A stretch of 64,000 nt of DNA from an uncultured Desulfospira sp. GTDB taxonomy: Bacteria > Desulfobacterota > Desulfobacteria > Desulfobacterales > Desulfobacteraceae. The position numbers were made by a program. Positions 36,001 through 45,000 of the stretch are shown here, piece by piece; positions within the stretch are counted from its first letter, which is position 1; the number at the start of each line of letters is the position of its first letter. Location: the NCBI GenBank assembly GCA_963663165.1, contig OY760175.1:4416001-4480000 (forward strand). The letters run 5' to 3'.

Positions 36001-39000
36001 TGGTGTTTGACAGGGCATCCGTGGCGGCCATTGCCCGGGCGTATATTGAACGGTTCGGCTGTGTCGGCCGGATCACCACGCTTTCAGGCGATTACACCAA
36101 AGATGACCCGGGAAACGGGTATGATCTGGTGCTGGCTTCAGATACCCTGTATTATGAGGGAAGCGAACTGGAACGGATTGCTGCCCGGGTTTATGATGCC
36201 TTAAATCCCGGCGGGGTACTGGTAGGGATTCACGGGGTGGTGACCAAGGACCGGACCGGCCCCGGGCCCATGGTCCTGGGCATGCTGCCCGATGCCCTTA
36301 TGGGCCAGGGGGAACTGCCCTGCGAAGGGTTTCTGGCACCGGCCCTGCTCCGGGCCGGGTTCAAACAGGTGCAGACCAGAAAAATGTTCATGGTATCTAA
36401 TGAAATGGAGGTAGACATCGCAAGAAAATGAAACGTATCGTTGAATCTTTATCCAATCATGCCAATGAATATATCCGCTGCCTGGCCGGTTCCCATCCGT
36501 TACGAAAGCCGGTTCTCAGTGCCATGCTGGACTTTCTTTCCCTTGAGGGCAAAGGGCTTGATGTCGGCTGCGGCATCGGGCTTCCCGCTGTGGAGATGGC
36601 CCTGAAAGGCCTTGATGTGACCGGCCTTGACCGGGAAGGGGAGTTTATCGAAATTGCCCGGGGGACTGCCGAAACACTCGGGCTTAAAGACTCCCCGGTT
36701 TTTGTCCGGGGGGATGCCGGCCGCCTTGAATTTGAAGCCGATTGTTTTGACTGGGCCTGGAGCATGGATTGTGTCAATTACGCCAAAGGCCTGAATACCA
36801 CCCCTTTATCGGAAATGAAACGGGTGACAAAACCCGGGGGACGGCTGATCCTTTCCGCCTGGTCTTCCCAGATGCTGCTGCCGGGATATCCAATGCTGGA
36901 GGCCCGGTTGAACACAACCCCTGAGGGGTTGGCCCCCTTTGAGGCCGGCATGGCCCCGCTGCACCACTTCATGGCCACGGCAGGGGTATTCAAACAGATG
37001 GGCCTGAAAGCCGTTCGGTGCCAAACTTTTTTACGGGACATTTCCCTGCCTTTGTCCAGCGGGGAAACACAGGCCATGAAAGATATATTTTACATGCGCT
37101 GGTCAGGTTCTCCGTCCGGGCTGGCGCCTGGGGAAAAATCCCTGTACACGGCCCTGACCGATCCTGAGTCTGACCGGTTTGTCCTTTTAGAGCCCGGGTT
37201 TTACGGATTTTTTACCTATACGATGTTCACCGGTGTGGTGCCGTAAACAGCAACCGGGGCTTTGGGCCATCATTGCCCCTGTAAATATGTATATTAAAAC
37301 CGCCATGGGGCTTTGGGCTGTCCTTTACTTTTTCTGCCGCCTTGTAACTGCCTGTGGCAAGGGGACAGCTTTGAATGGCGCCTTGATTTTATTCGGACAT
37401 TCATGGGGGGGGTGGCATCCTAAACCTGGGCTTCACCATGTGGCCGGCTGGCTCTTCCGGGCTGTCGCCTCTTTAAGGAGGGTGACCGGCGGATAGTTGA
37501 ACTGCCGGGTAAAGGCTCGGGTAAAATGGGCCCGGTTGGCATACCCGACCTGATAGGCCACCTCTGATACGGTGGTGTCCCCTTTTTCCAGCAGTTCATG
37601 TCCCTTTTCCATTCTCCTGGAAAGGACATAGGCCGAAATTGTGGTGTGGAACAGGTGCTTAAATCCTTTTTTCAATTTGGTCTGGTTCAGCCCGGTTTGC
37701 CGGGCAAGTGCCGCCAAGGTCGGCGGGTCGTGATACTGCCGGTCCAGGATTTGGCGGACCTGGTACAGCTGTTCTTTTTCACGGCTGGAGGGAAGGCGGC
37801 CATGGGCCTCAGGGAGAGAAGGAGATTTGAAGCGGCCCATGGCCAGCGCAATGATTTCCAAAGATTTGGCGGTCAGATAAATGGTTTTTGCGGTTCCCGT
37901 GAACCGGCAATCCATTAACTGCCGGGCCGCCATCCCCATGGAAGGACTTAAACTGTTTTTGACATACGGCAGCGGTTCAGATGCTTGGGCCTTTGCAAAA
38001 GGCAGGCCGCCCATGATGCGTTTGCTCATCTCCCGGTAAGGCAGCCTGTCCGGTTCAATCAGCAGACTGATCAGCAGGATGGGGTCATGGGGCATGCCCT
38101 CAATGATGCCATTATCCAGGTCAGATCCGGACAAGCACATCTCGAACTGCCCCGGCAGGGTCTGGTATGTGGGAACCGGCCCGGGCCGGTCCTGGGTCCA
38201 GTTGAGCCGGCCGGACATGCAAAGGGTGATTCCCAAAAAATAATGTTCAGGAATTACCCGGGCACACAGTTGTTCTTTTAAGGTATAATGTTCCAGGTAA
38301 AGCTTTAATCCTGGCTCCAGGGATATTTCCCTGCGGTACCCTTTGCCGATGGCATGGGGCAGGGTTCGCACAGTTTCAGCCCCATCCCGGGCAGGATGTC
38401 CTCCATAGCACTGAAACTGTTCAAATAATCTGGATGTATTCATTAATCAAATAAAATTTTGTTCAACATTGACAACTCAATTATATGAGTAAATTTTATT
38501 TGTCAACCAATTAATTTATTCATAATATGAATAATGTTCGTTTAATCAAATATTACAATTTACGAAAGCTTTCGGCCTTTTTATACCGTCACGTCAGGGG
38601 GGCTATCTGGCCGGGGATCGTGATATTTTGGCCTCGTCAAAGGATGCCATTTCGCTCATGATCCGGCATGCGGTCTGGGCAAGCTCAATGGCCAGGGCCG
38701 CGCCCGTGGCTTCTCCCAACCGCATGTCCAGATCCATTACGGGTTCAAGTCCCATGTATTCCAGGGCGGCGGCCTGGGCCGGTTCCACGGATTTATGGCC
38801 GCAGATAAGATACCCCCGGATTTGGGGGCAGAGCATATAGGCCAGAAGGCCTGCTGCCGTGGAGATAACCCCGTCCAGAACCACGGCGCACCCCTTTGAT
38901 GCGGCGGCCAGGGCCGCACCGGCAATGCCGGCCAGTTCAAATCCCCCAAGCTTCATGAGAACATCAAGCCCCTCTTCCGGGTCAATGGCGTGGAAATGAA

Positions 39001-42000: not shown

Positions 42001-45000
42001 CCCCAAAGGCCCTATCGGTTTTTATGGTCATAAGAATCCTCCAAATACTTCCCTGGTGTCGGGAAAATTATTCAACAGGACCTTATTCCAGCGGCAATCC
42101 TTTGGCGCTTTTTTGTCCGGGCAGGCTTTCCGGCTTGCGGATCACTCTAATTGCTGCACCTTCCCCTGAATTGAGCTATTAGCTTTTAGCCGTTAGCCAT
42201 TAGCTTTCGGCTAACGGCTAATGGTTTATAGCTAACAGCTTTTTCACAGAGTGGCATATTGCAGGTTTCGTCCCCGCTTACGGCAACGGCTGGTATGCAA
42301 CGGATTTTCACCGTTTTTCCTTTTACCCCGGATCCCGCTTTCAGTTAAAAAGCCGGGAAACCCAGGCACCCTGACAGTGACGTAAATTATAAGGATTACA
42401 AGGGGGTTTTGTCAATCCCCTGACCGGATAATCGCAGATAATTTGTTACCGCCGCCCACCCCGTAAAAAACCGAAGACGGCACCGATACATCCGCCGGCC
42501 AGGTGGCCGAACTGGGAGATATTGTCGGTTTTAAAGATGTCGGTCAGCTCAGAGCCAATGTAAATGGCGGCAATAAGGATAAAGGTTAACGGGATCTCCC
42601 GGCTCCTGAAATTGGAAAAAGAACCCAGCAGGATCATCATAAACACCAGGCCGCTGCCGCCGATCAGGCTGGTGTGAAACAGGGCGGCATTGAATAACGC
42701 CGTTGCGGCCGCCGTGATGACAAACATTTCAAAGAGCCGCCAGGACCCGTATTTTTCCTCTAAAAGCGGGCCTAAAAGCAGGATGAAAATGATATTTCCT
42801 TTAAAATGAGTCCATCCGGCGTGGGCCAGGACATGGGTAAACAGCCTGATGTAAAACTTCGGGTCTGAAAAGGCCATGTGGGAAGGGGAGGAAAGGCTCA
42901 GTCCCGTAAAATTTGAAACCGGCAGCAGCAGGCAGATCAGGGCCAGAATGCCGTAGGTAAGAATAACAGGGGAGTTGTATCTGATTTTCATATCCGCCTC
43001 CTTAAATCAGGTTTTACAAGGGGATCTTGAGCAAACATGGTTTTGTTTTTCGTATTTTGGGCTTTAAATAAAAGCCAAAACGCCTCTGACAGTCCGTCCT
43101 GAGGGTTATACCCGGGCAAACCGGCCCGGTCAACCCTGATTCGCCATGTTTCCAGGACAGGGCCATCACATGTAAAAAAACAATCCATCCTGGAATGGGG
43201 GAATAAGGATACCGCCAATAAAACGTAAGGAGACCGGAGGAAAGGAGACCGCAGACCGGAATGCGAAACCCCTAAGGATGCGCGATCCGGTCTCCCGTCT
43301 CCTTTCCTCCGGTTTCCTTTTTTTATTTATTATCCTTATCATCGAAATCGACATCACCAGCAGGCAAGTTACATGCGATCACCCTTTTTCCGGGACAGAC
43401 AGCCTTGAAACTTAACGGATTTTGATTTAGTGTAGTCACGCATCAATGTCCGCTTGTTTATAAATTTTTAGTCAAAGGAGAGTGCCCCATGCCGGCCCGC
43501 GTCACCACGTCAAGTTTGATGAAAATGAAACAGGAAGGGAAAAAAATTACCGCCCTGACCGCATATGACTATCCTTTTGCCTCTTTGCTGGACCAGGCCG
43601 GGATCGACATGATCCTGGTGGGGGATTCTTTGGGGATGGTGGTTCAGGGAAAAGAGACCACCCTGCCCGTTACCATGGATGAGATGATCTACCATACGGC
43701 CATGGTGTCACGGGCCTGCCAATACTCAATGGTGGTGGGGGATATGCCGTTTATGTCCTATCAGGTCTCGTTGGACAAAGCTGTTGAAAATGCAGGACGG
43801 ATCATCAAGGAAGGTCTCGCCCAGGCCGTAAAGCTTGAAGGCGGGGCCGATGTCTGCCCGGCCATTAATGCCATGGCAAAGGCCGGGATTCCGGTTCAGG
43901 CCCATATCGGCCTGACCCCCCAGTCGGTCCACCAGATGGGCGGGTTCAAGGTCCAGAGGGATGAAGAGCGCCTGTTAAAGGATGCTAAGGATGTGGAAAA
44001 TGCCGGGGCTTTTTCCGTTGTTTTGGAAGGGATTCCATCCCCCATCGCCGCAAAGATCACCCAGGCCCTGGCCATCCCCACTATTGGTATCGGGGCAGGG
44101 GCCGGATGTGACGGGCAGATCCTGGTTCTTCACGACATGCTGGGCATCAATGACCGGTTTTTGCCCAAGTTTGTCAAAAAGTATGCGGACCTGGCCATTG
44201 AGGCCAAAAAAGGTGTGGCCGCCTACATTGAAGAGGTCAGGCAGGGAACCTTTCCCTCTGAAGATTATGAATACAAATAACCTTTCCTTTACCATTATCG
44301 GATGCGGCCGCCTGGGAACCAACCTGGCGGCTTTTCTGGCCCAGAATGGATTTGTGCCGGCGGCCCTGTGCAGCAAAACCGAACAGTCTGCCCGCCGGGC
44401 TGTCCAGGCGGCGGGCGCAGGCAAGGTGGTGGATGACCCCATTGAAGCGGCCCGGACCTCTAACCTTATTTTTATCACCACCCCGGATACGGTCATTGAG
44501 TCTTTGTGTGGCCATATGGCTTCAAAGGGCGGATTTGGACCGGACTCTATTGTCTTTCACCTTTCAGGGGCCCTGCCGTCCAGTATTCTGGATTCAGCCG
44601 GAAAGGTCGGGGCCGGTATCGGGTCCATCCATCCCCTCCAGGCCTTTGCCCCTTACAAACCGGGGCAGGCATCCCCGTTTAAAGGAATTAACATCTCACT
44701 GGAAGGCAGTGAGAGAGCGGTCAGCCTGGGCAAAGAGATTGTCAACAGCCTTGGGGCCAATTACTTCACTATTCCCACCCGGGCCAAGGTCCTTTACCAT
44801 GCATCGGCTGTGGCTGCTTCCAATTATCTGGTAACCCTGGAGCATTTTGCCCTTTGCCTTTTGATGGAAACCGGGCTTCCCGAAAGCCGGGCCTATGAAA
44901 TTCTGGAACCGTTGATTCAGGGAACCTTGAAAAACATTAAAGCCCGGGGCAGCGTGAATGCGCTGACCGGCCCCGTGGCCAGGGGGGATGATGATATCAT

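Follow-up and report, generated by a model that had tools for sequence, protein, structure and literature searches.

A cobalamin riboswitch in the 64,000-nt stretch of DNA analyzed here (the window) is followed by genes for a TrpD-like transferase (TrpD2), a conserved small protein, and a fusion of a zinc dehydrogenase to CobT. Together, these very probably act with CobT in the lower-ligand (nucleotide-loop) branch of cobamide synthesis, as a module repressed by cobalamin. Our reading of its chemistry is more tentative: the module may make the base substrate of CobT by PRPP-dependent N-ribosylation and NAD-dependent oxidation. That reading draws on the riboswitch and operon anatomy, the conserved pairing of dehydrogenase and TrpD2, and the fusion or adjacency to CobT in two gene orders. 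It also draws on the cob-cluster context, the presence of CobT and frequent absence of BzaF in carrier genomes, the acceptor-site changes of TrpD2, the intact sites of the dehydrogenase, the CobT phylogeny, and a layout parallel to that of riboswitch-bzaF-cobT operons.

Operon anatomy and gene orders

All coordinates are positions within the window, position 1 being position 4,416,001 of OY760175.1, and all features lie on the minus strand. The aptamer (42103..42388) matches RF00174 over the full model (1-189) with 71.2 bits (gathering threshold 31.5; E = 1.4e-15). Directly abutting its 5' side is a sigma-70-type promoter-like site (TTGACA-18-TATAAT, 42386..42415), recognized only by its 12/12 match to consensus; the 4.4 kb scanned holds three sites of this type, where 2.7 would be expected. 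From the end of the aptamer it is 71 nt to the ATG of TrpD2 (42031), across an expression platform and ribosome-binding site read from the sequence (42032..42102), with GGAGG at 42041-42037, 5 nt ahead of the ATG. No terminator-like site was found between aptamer and ATG, and we infer that the riboswitch controls translation of the operon. TrpD2 (369 aa, 40922..42031) was identified as an ORF with Pfam and NCBIfam matches, the small protein (67 aa, 40708..40911) as an ORF with homologues at related loci, and the fusion (702 aa, 38603..40711) as an ORF with domain matches; the last two ORFs overlap by 4 nt. An earlier note on this DNA had described a cobalamin riboswitch ahead of a three-gene operon, and every element of it was found again at the coordinates given there, including the 67-aa ORF, which is a real gene.

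Among the closest known systems are the bzaF operons. In 2015, Hazra and colleagues reportedly described operons for anaerobic benzimidazole synthesis with the order riboswitch-bzaF (or bzaAB)-cobT. As in the module, a cobalamin riboswitch precedes one or more genes upstream of cobT, and both units belong to the lower-ligand branch. However, the module lacks a ThiC-type radical SAM enzyme and instead has a TrpD-fold transferase, the 67-aa protein, and the dehydrogenase::CobT fusion. The host genome also carries the separate bzaF operon that the earlier note reported, with a riboswitch (84.7 bits), a bzaF-like ThiC_Rad_SAM gene, and cobT.

Our comparison covered 40 loci in 38 genomes from the order, plus 80 loci from a species-level scan; the genomes are akin, so the counts are not independent, and matches in the genome searches are not copy numbers. 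The dehydrogenase adjoins TrpD2 in 36/40 and 74/80 loci, and four of the six exceptions in the larger scan are contig ends. A CobT domain then follows in 23/40 and 59/80, mostly as a fusion, with an open frame of approximately 700 aa in 55/80. Two gene orders occur under RF00174, riboswitch-TrpD2-small-ADH(::CobT) and riboswitch-ADH-TrpD2-CobT. The conserved core is the pair of dehydrogenase and TrpD-like protein. Fusion to CobT and the gene for the 67-aa protein are found in one gene order only. A cobalamin riboswitch precedes the unit in 26 of the 36 loci tested (16/20, 7/8, 3/3, and 0/5), the last group being a lineage with aroQ and/or aroK directly upstream (L130, L040, L039/L162, L146, L156). 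At three loci (L054, L060, L062), the module is embedded in cobU-cobS-cobD-cbiB clusters. Fusion or adjacency to CobT spans two gene orders and two phyla, and the pairing is kept across families. The tie to lower-ligand attachment proposed in the earlier note gains from this persistence of CobT and riboswitch across families and both orders, and from a salvage operon in Bacteroidota.

That operon, in Draconibacterium, runs riboswitch-TonB receptor-PKD protein-TrpD2-small-ADH::CobT-cobU-cobT-cobS, and it invites a different explanation. The pair might free or convert an imported base, riboside, or nucleotide to a form that CobT can attach, acting in cobinamide or cobamide salvage and not in de novo synthesis. 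TonB-ExbBD genes lie under a second riboswitch downstream of the module at L060 and L062, and a neighboring cob cluster holds an AP_endonuc_2 gene, from the family to which CbiR presumably belongs. The TrpD fold is also common to nucleoside and AMP phosphorylases, and TrpD2 has weak NCBIfam matches to both. However, these reach at most 43 bits, compared with 237 bits on the TrpD model TIGR01245 (cut-off 199). Free-living sulfate reducers with nearby cob genes make up most of the carriers, and among the related loci, no transporter is consistently linked and flanking genes are otherwise not conserved. We consider salvage unlikely.

Proteins of the module

TrpD2 consists of Glycos_trans_3N and Glycos_transf_3 domains and shares the fold and two-domain architecture of TrpD (TIGR01245; solved structures 9ucw and 1vqu). 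The host genome, a single contig of 6.74 Mb, has two Glycos_transf_3 matches; its canonical trpD (405 bits on TIGR01245) sits in trpE-trpG-trpD-trpC-trpF and is 34% identical to TrpD2, bearing out the view that the latter is a second anthranilate-phosphoribosyltransferase-like gene besides the real one. Scores of the TrpD2 family and true TrpD are bimodal. TrpD2 differs from TrpD in its low identity (32-38%), its place outside the trp operon, and a 2-residue insertion. The Mg-binding DE pair and most of the glycine-rich loop are retained, but GTGGD has become GTGMD, KHGN has become RHGA, and GSAD has become GTVD. Across the 37 aligned family members, GPL is replaced by ASL (within NIAASLANP), and the Arg of the TrpD "xRS/T" motif, which we take to bind the carboxylate of anthranilate, by G179 (F-G179-S) in 37/37. 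These motifs are family-invariant except that A118 of RHGA (34/37) is Ser in 3/37; G117, L156, G159, and T127 are near-invariant (34-36/37). With the real trpD in its own operon and the acceptor site of TrpD2 remodeled by family-invariant changes, TrpD2 is not a TrpD.

Could TrpD2 still be a spare anthranilate phosphoribosyltransferase or an aromatic-pathway enzyme that lies near CobT by chance, with no cobamide function? It does exceed the TIGR01245 cut-off, and aroQ or aroK adjoins it in the riboswitch-less lineage. Against this stand the RF00174 matches ahead of most units tested, the association with CobT in both gene orders and across two phyla, canonical trpD in the same TrpD2-carrying genomes, and the replacement of acceptor-site residues throughout the family, which together make it highly improbable.

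The small protein is encoded between TrpD2 and dehydrogenase in 14/40 and 62/80 loci. K27 and V30 do not vary across 35 aligned sequences, and conservation reaches at least 90% at D26 and throughout 28-ASVFP-32. Its AF2 model has a pLDDT of 96.9; searches returned no Pfam family, no Foldseek match at E≤0.001, and no VIA match at Z≥5. It is a conserved fourth part of the module, new here and without a fold match.

The fusion begins with a zinc-dependent medium-chain dehydrogenase (residues 1-345, 39677..40711). Domain search recovered both ADH_N (23-123) and DBI_PRT (366-696), as the earlier note had it, and ADH_zinc_N (200-281) scores 30.9 bits, slightly below its cut-off of 31.8. C37, H59, E60, E134, four structural-zinc cysteines, GxGxxG, and E181 are invariant in 29 fusions, so both zinc sites and the dinucleotide fold are retained. 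An acidic residue at the end of beta-B generally indicates NAD, and the one invariant here suggests NAD as cofactor. The Cys-His-Glu(-Glu) catalytic zinc set, the four-Cys structural lobe, and GxGxxG are common to the polyol/threonine-dehydrogenase branch (Tdh, sorbitol dehydrogenase, galactitol-1-P 5-dehydrogenase; 4ej6). The closest solved relative is 4ej6, an uncharacterized zinc dehydrogenase, followed by threonine dehydrogenases, and the top named NCBIfam matches are L-threonine 3-dehydrogenases. A threonine-dehydrogenase-like enzyme could therefore be imagined to supply the aminopropanol linker, or the pair could alter the ribosyl phosphate of the nucleotide loop; to our knowledge, most anaerobes lack the threonine kinase PduX, and carriage independent of BzaF (below) would also fit. 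However, the enzyme falls far under every equivalog cut-off (best 104 bits, against 380 and 458 for the threonine dehydrogenases), it is always paired with TrpD2, its frequent fusion is to CobT and not to CobD or CbiB, and linker synthesis has no place for a PRPP transferase. Such loop chemistry is very unlikely.

The C-terminal half (residues 352-702, 38603..39658) is a full CobT (nicotinate-nucleotide:base phosphoribosyltransferase), with 420 bits for DBI_PRT and 419.5 for TIGR03160 (cut-off 319). It aligns to solved CobT and ArsA (CobT/ArsAB structures 1wx1, 4hdk, and 1d0s) with GEMGIGNT and the LGE catalytic motif intact; it differs from them in lying behind a dehydrogenase and in its phylogeny. 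The CobTs linked to modules of the first gene order, all 36 of them, group in a single clade of their own, which a branch with SH-aLRT 98 splits from 50 other CobTs. The host has two DBI_PRT matches, its two CobTs being 45% identical, and the fused and BzaF-linked CobTs fall in different clades, as their proposed distinctness would have it. The CobTs adjacent to modules of the second gene order are phylogenetically ordinary, which counts against our preferred reading. At the positions of S80, Q88, and L175 in Salmonella CobT, which have assigned roles, the fused CobT carries F, M, and M. Thermus CobT and ArsA differ from it only in a Y at the first position, and the BzaF-linked CobT of the host shares the F and M of the first two. 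These residues therefore give no clue to specificity.

Carriage of the module

Within the order, we compared 52 carriers of the module with 249 non-carriers. A CobT match is found in 51/52 carriers and 180/249 non-carriers. The module is missing from 180 of the 231 CobT-bearing genomes, which argues against its making the base. BzaF-like genes (E≤1e-120) occur in 10/52 carriers (19%) and 54/249 non-carriers (22%), leaving 42/52 carriers with none at that level. NadC matches are present in 42/52 carriers, the 10 without including two incomplete genomes, and missing in 22/249 non-carriers, a mild excess at most; strong NAPRTase matches (14/52 versus approximately 52/249) indicate that PncB is not depleted. 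Whether a genome carries the module does not depend on BzaF, NadC, or PncB. The earlier note saw a system distinct from the bzaF-cobT operon; the separate CobT clade upholds this, but in most carriers the module does not stand beside a bzaF-cobT operon as an additional system, since 41/52 carriers have only one CobT match, in several the module's own, and most lack BzaF. Two genomes (G048, G210) combine BzaF with only a fused CobT (an open frame of approximately 720-740 aa), so the fused CobT is not obviously specialized for a special base; a third (G243) has BzaF and a single CobT match.

If the module were an alternative base pathway, mutual exclusion with BzaF would be more natural; the independence seen instead suits a general helper of CobT as well as it suits such a pathway. 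For example, TrpD2 with the dehydrogenase might make or regenerate the phosphoribosyl donor of CobT, a beta-ribotide that could be NaMN from the nicotinate that CobT releases or another activated ribotide, with the net conversion of base and PRPP to alpha-ribotide independent of the NAD pool. By stereochemistry, two inversions are needed from alpha-PRPP, which counts for this scheme, as do the genomes whose fused CobT is the only one detected. The host genome has no NadA or NadC match and only one NAPRTase-family gene, and at L153, TrpD2 is directly preceded by an NAD synthase gene. However, the NadC and PncB counts above speak against donor supply, NaMN flux into cobamides should be tiny, the scheme leaves the dehydrogenase without a role, and the Arg presumed to hold a carboxylate is gone from TrpD2. 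We regard donor supply as rather unlikely.

Proposed reaction sequence

In the base-making reading that we prefer, TrpD2 would first use PRPP to phosphoribosylate the nitrogen of an acceptor that is probably an aryl or heteroaryl amine lacking the ortho-carboxylate, and so not anthranilate itself. The polyol/threonine-dehydrogenase-type zinc enzyme, probably NAD-dependent, would then oxidize a sugar-derived or dihydro-heterocyclic intermediate. A free base would result, which the fused CobT domain would activate with NaMN to the alpha-ribotide. On this reading, TrpD2, the small protein, and the dehydrogenase would be the counterpart of BzaF. BluB, the aerobic DMB synthase, is a base-forming enzyme ahead of CobT that needs O2 and FMNH2; its reaction turns the ribityl C1' into C2 of the benzimidazole, with loss of erythrose-4-phosphate. 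By analogy, the module may provide a dedicated base-forming step ahead of CobT, the boldest form of this reading, although its proteins have no sequence relation to BluB. Within the operon, we found nothing that could plausibly supply an aromatic diamine or similar acceptor, which counts against the base-making reading, and the unusual ligand of the earlier note is pure conjecture. Our literature searches found no description of a TrpD2-dehydrogenase-CobT gene set. This widely conserved gene set, without a described function, probably marks an unknown step in the building of B12-type cofactors.

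A riboswitch-led operon

Three genes are tightly packed on the minus strand in the ORF list: TrpD2, a TrpD-like phosphoribosyltransferase paralogue of 369 aa (42031..40922); an ORF for a small protein of 67 aa (40911..40708); and, overlapping the latter by 4 nt, ADH::CobT, a 702-aa fusion of a zinc medium-chain dehydrogenase domain to a CobT domain (40711..38603). Ahead of them on the same strand lies a cobalamin riboswitch (RF00174, 42388..42103; 71.2 bits against a gathering threshold of 31.5), which is full-length in its aptamer (model positions 1-189 of 189) and is the sole Rfam match within the 64-kb window. 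A promoter-like site of perfect consensus, TTGACA-18-TATAAT (42415..42386, minus strand), abuts the aptamer just 5' of it. The distance from the aptamer to the ATG of TrpD2 is 71 nt, GGAGG stands ahead of that ATG, and a scan of the leader found no terminator-like site between the aptamer and the start codon. Given these last two features, translation initiation is the likelier level at which the riboswitch is predicted to act.

The genome consists of one 6.74-Mb contig with two CobT matches and two TrpD-fold matches. Canonical trpD sits elsewhere, within trpE-trpG-trpD-trpC-trpF, and TrpD2 is a second copy outside the trp operon. Upstream of the second cobT lies a BzaF-like gene of the ThiC family, and the pair has a cobalamin riboswitch of its own; this bzaF-like gene is 0.64 Mb from the operon in the window, and the two CobTs are 45% identical. 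The ORFs, the riboswitch score and the domain matches bear out the earlier note, which had described a cobalamin riboswitch ahead of a TrpD-like gene, a 67-aa ORF and an ADH-CobT fusion. Its further claims, that the real trpD is separate from the TrpD-like gene and that the genome has a separate riboswitch-bzaF-cobT operon, hold as well. While a bza operon has a ThiC-family radical SAM synthase, no such gene (BzaF or BzaAB) was found in the operon of the window by ORF and Pfam analysis.

The operon is flanked by an AraC-type regulator gene downstream and a rhomboid gene upstream. Only the AraC gene recurs in relatives, and solely in L090, the 93% relative; the nearest relative is an uncultured Desulfospira (93%). 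Two methyltransferase genes on the plus strand converge on the AraC gene: an O-methyltransferase (Dimerisation + Methyltransf_2, 35412-36431) and, overlapping it, a Methyltransf_11 gene (36428-37246), whose product weakly matches a corrinoid-protein-associated methyltransferase. From its architecture, the O-methyltransferase might be BzaC-like. It recurs only in the 93% relative and in locus L046 (33% identity, two genes past the module).

The proteins of the operon

TrpD2 has the Pfam domains Glycos_trans_3N and Glycos_transf_3 and passes TIGR01245 with 237.3 bits (cut-off 199.05), where the canonical TrpD of the same genome reaches 405.4. Despite this score, it differs from TrpD in lacking both the substrate-binding motifs and the place in the trp operon. 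When 301 genomes of the order were searched with TrpD2, the scores were bimodal, with matches of 41-100% identity and at least 297 bits in 52 genomes and a second group, at 32-38% identity and at most 184 bits, made up of ordinary TrpDs. Motifs were compared in an alignment of 37 family members and the canonical TrpDs from their genomes, and by HMMER against TrpDs of solved structure. About 5 of the 15 canonical rows resemble wrong-frame extractions and were kept in; a separate alignment to two solved TrpDs agrees. The GTGGD of TrpD is GTGMD in the family (M90 in 37/37), KHGN is RHGA (R115 and H116 in 37/37, G117 in 36/37, A118 in 34/37 with Ser in 3), and GSAD is GTVD (V128 and D129 in 37/37, T127 in 36/37). 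The Arg of the TrpD "xRS/T" motif is replaced by Gly179 (F-G-S) in all 37 members, and NxLGPLTNP (GPLxNP) by NIAASLANP (A185-A189 in 37/37). The family also has a two-residue insertion (LFNGMS; L156 in 34/37, G159 in 36/37), and the Mg-binding DE pair is the only one of the compared motifs to be kept. In the Sulfolobus and M. tuberculosis enzymes, these motifs bind PRPP and anthranilate. On our reading of the sequences, TrpD2 would be a PRPP-type transferase with an acceptor other than anthranilate.

A third TrpD-like subfamily, 41-45% identical to TrpD2, was seen in loci L066 (G075:C2, 8001-9080) and L067 (G265:C1, 9077-7998) and shares the Arg-to-Gly and Asn-to-Ala changes of TrpD2. It lies in a cluster of IGPS-like, PRAI-like, RibD_C, TrpD-like and molybdopterin oxidoreductase genes that has neither the dehydrogenase nor CobT, and that looks like a "tryptophan-like" pathway running in parallel and serving a different arylamine. 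The shared changes, together with the PRAI-like, IGPS-like and RibD_C neighbours, hint that the wider TrpD-like family ribosylates aromatic amines, the sugar then being rearranged or reduced; we treat this as a lead only.

In the fusion, ADH_N matches residues 23-123 (57.8 bits, cut-off 23.5), and ADH_zinc_N weakly matches residues 200-281 (30.9 bits against a cut-off of 31.8), with two homologues scoring 57.7 and 42.1. Three features are invariant among 29 fusions and agree with the alignment to 4ej6: the catalytic zinc site (C37, H59, E60, E134), whose ligands are of the polyol/threonine-dehydrogenase type, the structural zinc lobe with its four Cys (C79, C82, C85, C93) and the GxGxxG motif (G158, G160, G163). 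Also invariant is the acidic residue that closes the first beta-strand of the dinucleotide fold. As a rule, such a residue favours NAD over NADP, and the same would consequently be expected of this dehydrogenase. The closest solved relative is 4ej6, an uncharacterised zinc dehydrogenase, followed by threonine dehydrogenases. The cut-offs for L-threonine 3-dehydrogenase were missed (NF003808, 104.4 against 380 bits; TIGR00692, 103.5 against 458 bits), as was, widely, every NCBIfam equivalog cut-off.

The CobT domain was said in the earlier note to be complete, and it is: DBI_PRT (PF02277) covers residues 366-696, and TIGR03160 scores 419.5 against 319.3 bits over profile positions 8-334 of 334. 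The GEMGIGNT and LGE motifs are present in alignments to 4kqj, 1wx1 and ArsA, the copy in the window reading LGEATGA, and E524 (GEMGIGNT), G666 and E667 (LGE) are invariant columns among the 29 fusions. The catalytic Glu of LGEG corresponds to E317 and the phosphate-loop Glu of GEMGIGNT to E174 of Salmonella CobT. Phosphoribosyl transfer between NaMN and a base is predicted for the fused domain. The positions aligned to the base-specificity residues S80, Q88 and L175 of the Salmonella enzyme hold F, M and M. We dropped them as a clue since the same positions are nearly alike in Thermus CobT and ArsA (Y, M, M) and in the BzaF-linked CobT of the same genome (F and M at the first two).

The 67-aa ORF is a real gene. 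A consensus from 35 homologues reads MELLIIKxGxxYIR...LDKASVFP...IKKLVLTEEDL, with seven invariant columns and with D26 and 28-ASVFP-32 at least 90% conserved. Its AlphaFold model is very confident (pLDDT 96.9) and consists of four strands, a helix and a strand. No Pfam family matched any of the 35 members at E<=0.01, no NCBIfam model matched the copy in the window, and members in the Atlas fall solely into "hypothetical protein" clusters. The model had no Foldseek match at E<=0.001, and the best VIA match (Z 4.5) was not convincing. A complex prediction with the small protein as partner of TrpD2 and the dehydrogenase domain scored 0.00, which gives no answer and is evidence neither way.

Gene orders and relatives

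For a first set of 40 TrpD2 family members from 38 genomes, 8 kb on either side were searched by tblastn. A dehydrogenase homologue directly adjoins TrpD2 in 36 of the 40; 23 loci have a CobT domain, and 14 have the small protein. When one genome of each species was scanned with a pattern, at least 576 stretches encoding relatives were found. Among the best 80 of these, the dehydrogenase follows TrpD2 in 74, and contig ends account for four of the six misses. A CobT domain follows in 59 of the 80, the small protein occurs in 62, and 55 have an open frame of about 700 aa that encodes ADH::CobT. Two gene orders were found. Order A, in relatives of at least 54% identity, runs riboswitch-TrpD2-small-ADH(::CobT); order B, at 46-52% identity, runs riboswitch-ADH-TrpD2(-CobT) and has no small gene. 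RF00174 stands ahead of the unit in 16/20 order-A, 7/8 order-B and 3/3 further loci.

RF00174 is absent from 5/5 loci of one lineage, which has aroQ (DHquinase_II) and/or aroK (shikimate kinase) directly upstream on the same strand (L130 4694-9890, L040 4890-9581, L039/L162, L146 and L156); for example, L130 reads aroQ-aroK-TrpD2-small-ADH::CobT. These neighbours may hint at a shikimate-derived acceptor, or they may be inherited synteny. In one uncultured Desulfobacterium genome, a NAD synthase (NadE-type) gene is directly upstream of TrpD2 (L153, 4718-5719).

Most of the carriers that the records name belong to the Desulfobacterales, among them Desulfospira joergensenii DSM 10085 and Desulfocicer vacuolatum DSM 3385, of which the second lacks the riboswitch; others belong to the Geopsychrobacteraceae and Desulfatiglandales, and one is a Draconibacterium (Bacteroidota). 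Apart from cob-type neighbours, no flanking gene is conserved beyond the module in the loci examined; EamA, MaoC, glutamate dehydrogenase, sensor kinase and other genes beside it track close kinship alone. Clusters of cobU-cobS-cobD-cbiB adjoin the module in L054, L060 and L062, and cobQ or cbiA is near it in some loci. The Draconibacterium operon runs riboswitch, TonB receptor, PKD protein, TrpD2, small, ADH::CobT, cobU, cobT, cobS. Its second, unfused CobT (L165, 10010-11014), separated from the fused one by cobU, has a very long branch in the CobT tree (2.9-3.3 changes per column).

Several features of the cob clusters were also noted. An AP_endonuc_2 xylose-isomerase-like TIM-barrel gene of about 269 aa occurs in L054, L060 and L062, where it adjoins cbiB, and in L047 and L074; the remodelling enzyme CbiR belongs to the same superfamily. 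In L060 (10313-10501) and L062 (10318-10506), the module cobT is immediately followed by a second cobalamin riboswitch, which is predicted to control the TonB-dependent receptor, with ExbB and ExbD, that it precedes. In L054, a second riboswitch is divergent (5887-6076, minus strand).

The long open frames that mimic ADH::TrpD2 fusions in L070 and L074 are artefacts due to GC-rich DNA; dehydrogenase and TrpD2 are encoded in different frames. P0121, a single metagenome protein of 732 aa that is 54% identical to the TrpD2 of the window, has ADH_N, ADH_zinc_N and both TrpD domains and is either a rare dehydrogenase/TrpD2 fusion or an assembly artefact.

In a quick maximum-likelihood tree of CobT (87 rows, SH-aLRT support, midpoint root), all 36 order-A module-linked CobTs, the fused Draconibacterium copy included, form one clade, which a branch with support 98 splits from the other 50. 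Order A therefore travels together with its CobT as a co-evolving unit. Another clade (support 100) holds 18 of the 21 BzaF-adjacent CobTs, and the nine order-B module CobTs are intermixed with ordinary ones.

A probable place in cobamide synthesis

That the module belongs to cobamide synthesis is well supported, and we hold this with considerable confidence. The riboswitch recurs in two gene orders and two phyla, fusion to CobT is repeated, nucleotide-loop clusters adjoin the module, and co-occurrence with CobT is nearly obligate. Beside this evidence, a role outside cobamides is barely credible. The module is carried by 52 of 301 sampled genomes of the order, and all carrier counts come from this one sample of related genomes and so are not independent. 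A CobT match was found in 51/52 carriers against 180/249 non-carriers, with one match in 41 carriers, two in 10 and none in 1. The only match is the open frame of about 700 aa beside TrpD2 in seven carriers (G064, G098, G210, G015, G053, G048, G036) and lies on another contig in ten others. The fused CobT is thus often the only one detected and not a spare.

As to mechanism, our tentative preference is base supply, in which TrpD2 and the dehydrogenase would make the base for the fused CobT. TrpD2 would phosphoribosylate an N-nucleophile other than anthranilate with PRPP as donor, the polyol-type dehydrogenase would oxidise a sugar-derived or dihydro-heterocyclic intermediate, and the base so made would be activated by the fused CobT. 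In favour of this, the layout resembles that of riboswitch-bzaF-cobT, it makes sense to fuse a final step of biosynthesis to the enzyme that uses the product, and 42/52 carriers have no BzaF-like match (at least 60% identity to the genome's own, E<=1e-120). However, the BzaF-like gene, present in 64/301 genomes, occurs in 10/52 carriers and 54/249 others. This independence counts against base supply, since a redundant base pathway would be expected to exclude BzaF and be excluded by it; further points against it are that the fused CobT has housekeeping status and that no source of the acceptor is visible. With a BzaF-like gene in no more than 10/52 carriers, tailoring of its product was rejected as a general function.

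The main rival explanation, that TrpD2 supplies or regenerates the beta-ribotide donor of CobT, would explain why the module and BzaF occur independently. It gives the dehydrogenase nothing to do, however, and we consider it unlikely. The patterns of NadC and PncB lend it no support: NadC is matched in 42/52 carriers, and carriers have strong NAPRTase matches as often (14/52) as other genomes do (about 52/249). These counts give no sign that TrpD2 replaces a NaMN-forming enzyme, be it NadC or PncB. In the genome of the window (G000; a single contig, 96.7% complete), neither NadA nor NadC was matched and one NAPRTase-family gene was found (C1:4359790-4360431); G037 and G160, of the same family, share this pattern. 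For its NAD, the organism may rely on salvage of niacin. A salvage or remodelling role of the module is quite unlikely in our view, and other loop chemistry, for example on the linker, has a slim chance.

Beside base supply in its general form, we weighed a distinctly improbable proposal, that TrpD2, the 67-aa protein and the dehydrogenase form a lower-ligand base synthase independent of both O2 and radical SAM chemistry. An aromatic amine would be phosphoribosylated from PRPP, and the ring-opened glycosylamine would then be oxidised and cleaved. C1 of PRPP would become the bridging carbon of the imidazole ring, much as such a carbon arises in the products of BluB, and the base would pass to the fused CobT. 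We know of no account of the origin of benzimidazole and 5-methylbenzimidazole, which are reported from sulfate reducers. If true, the proposal would provide the missing route to benzimidazole-type ligands, and BluB and Bza would be joined by a third pathway, a widespread one.

In full-text searches, no paper was found to tie a paralogue of TrpD, or a fusion of a dehydrogenase with CobT, to cobamides; the gene may be listed in supplements, both those of riboswitch surveys and that of Shelton et al. 2019, which lay outside the scope of the searches. A figure legend in PMC8620254 names trpD, "DH" and sugar phosphate epimerase, uncommented, among genes of Chlorobium cobalamin regions. In the passages concerned, PMC12452182 deals with T-box trpD, and PMC11321594 and PMC4230183 are silent on the origin of 5-methylbenzimidazole.

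We regard the module as a cobamide operon that is controlled by a riboswitch and whose enzymes are undescribed; should the synthase proposal hold, it would be a new pathway. Two enzyme families without a prior link to cobamide synthesis and a small protein without a recognisable fold make up, with CobT, a four-part set that is predicted to be repressed by B12 and extends from 52/301 genomes of the order to at least 576 stretches across species, Bacteroidota among them. Since Desulfospira joergensenii and Desulfocicer vacuolatum are cultured carriers, the question is directly testable. The cobamide that a microbe makes decides who in its community can share it, and its prediction from genomes depends on known lower-ligand genes. 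Once solved, the reaction would either add a base-forming pathway or expose an unknown requirement of the CobT step, and either outcome would alter which cobamide type is predicted from the genomes of marine sulfate reducers.
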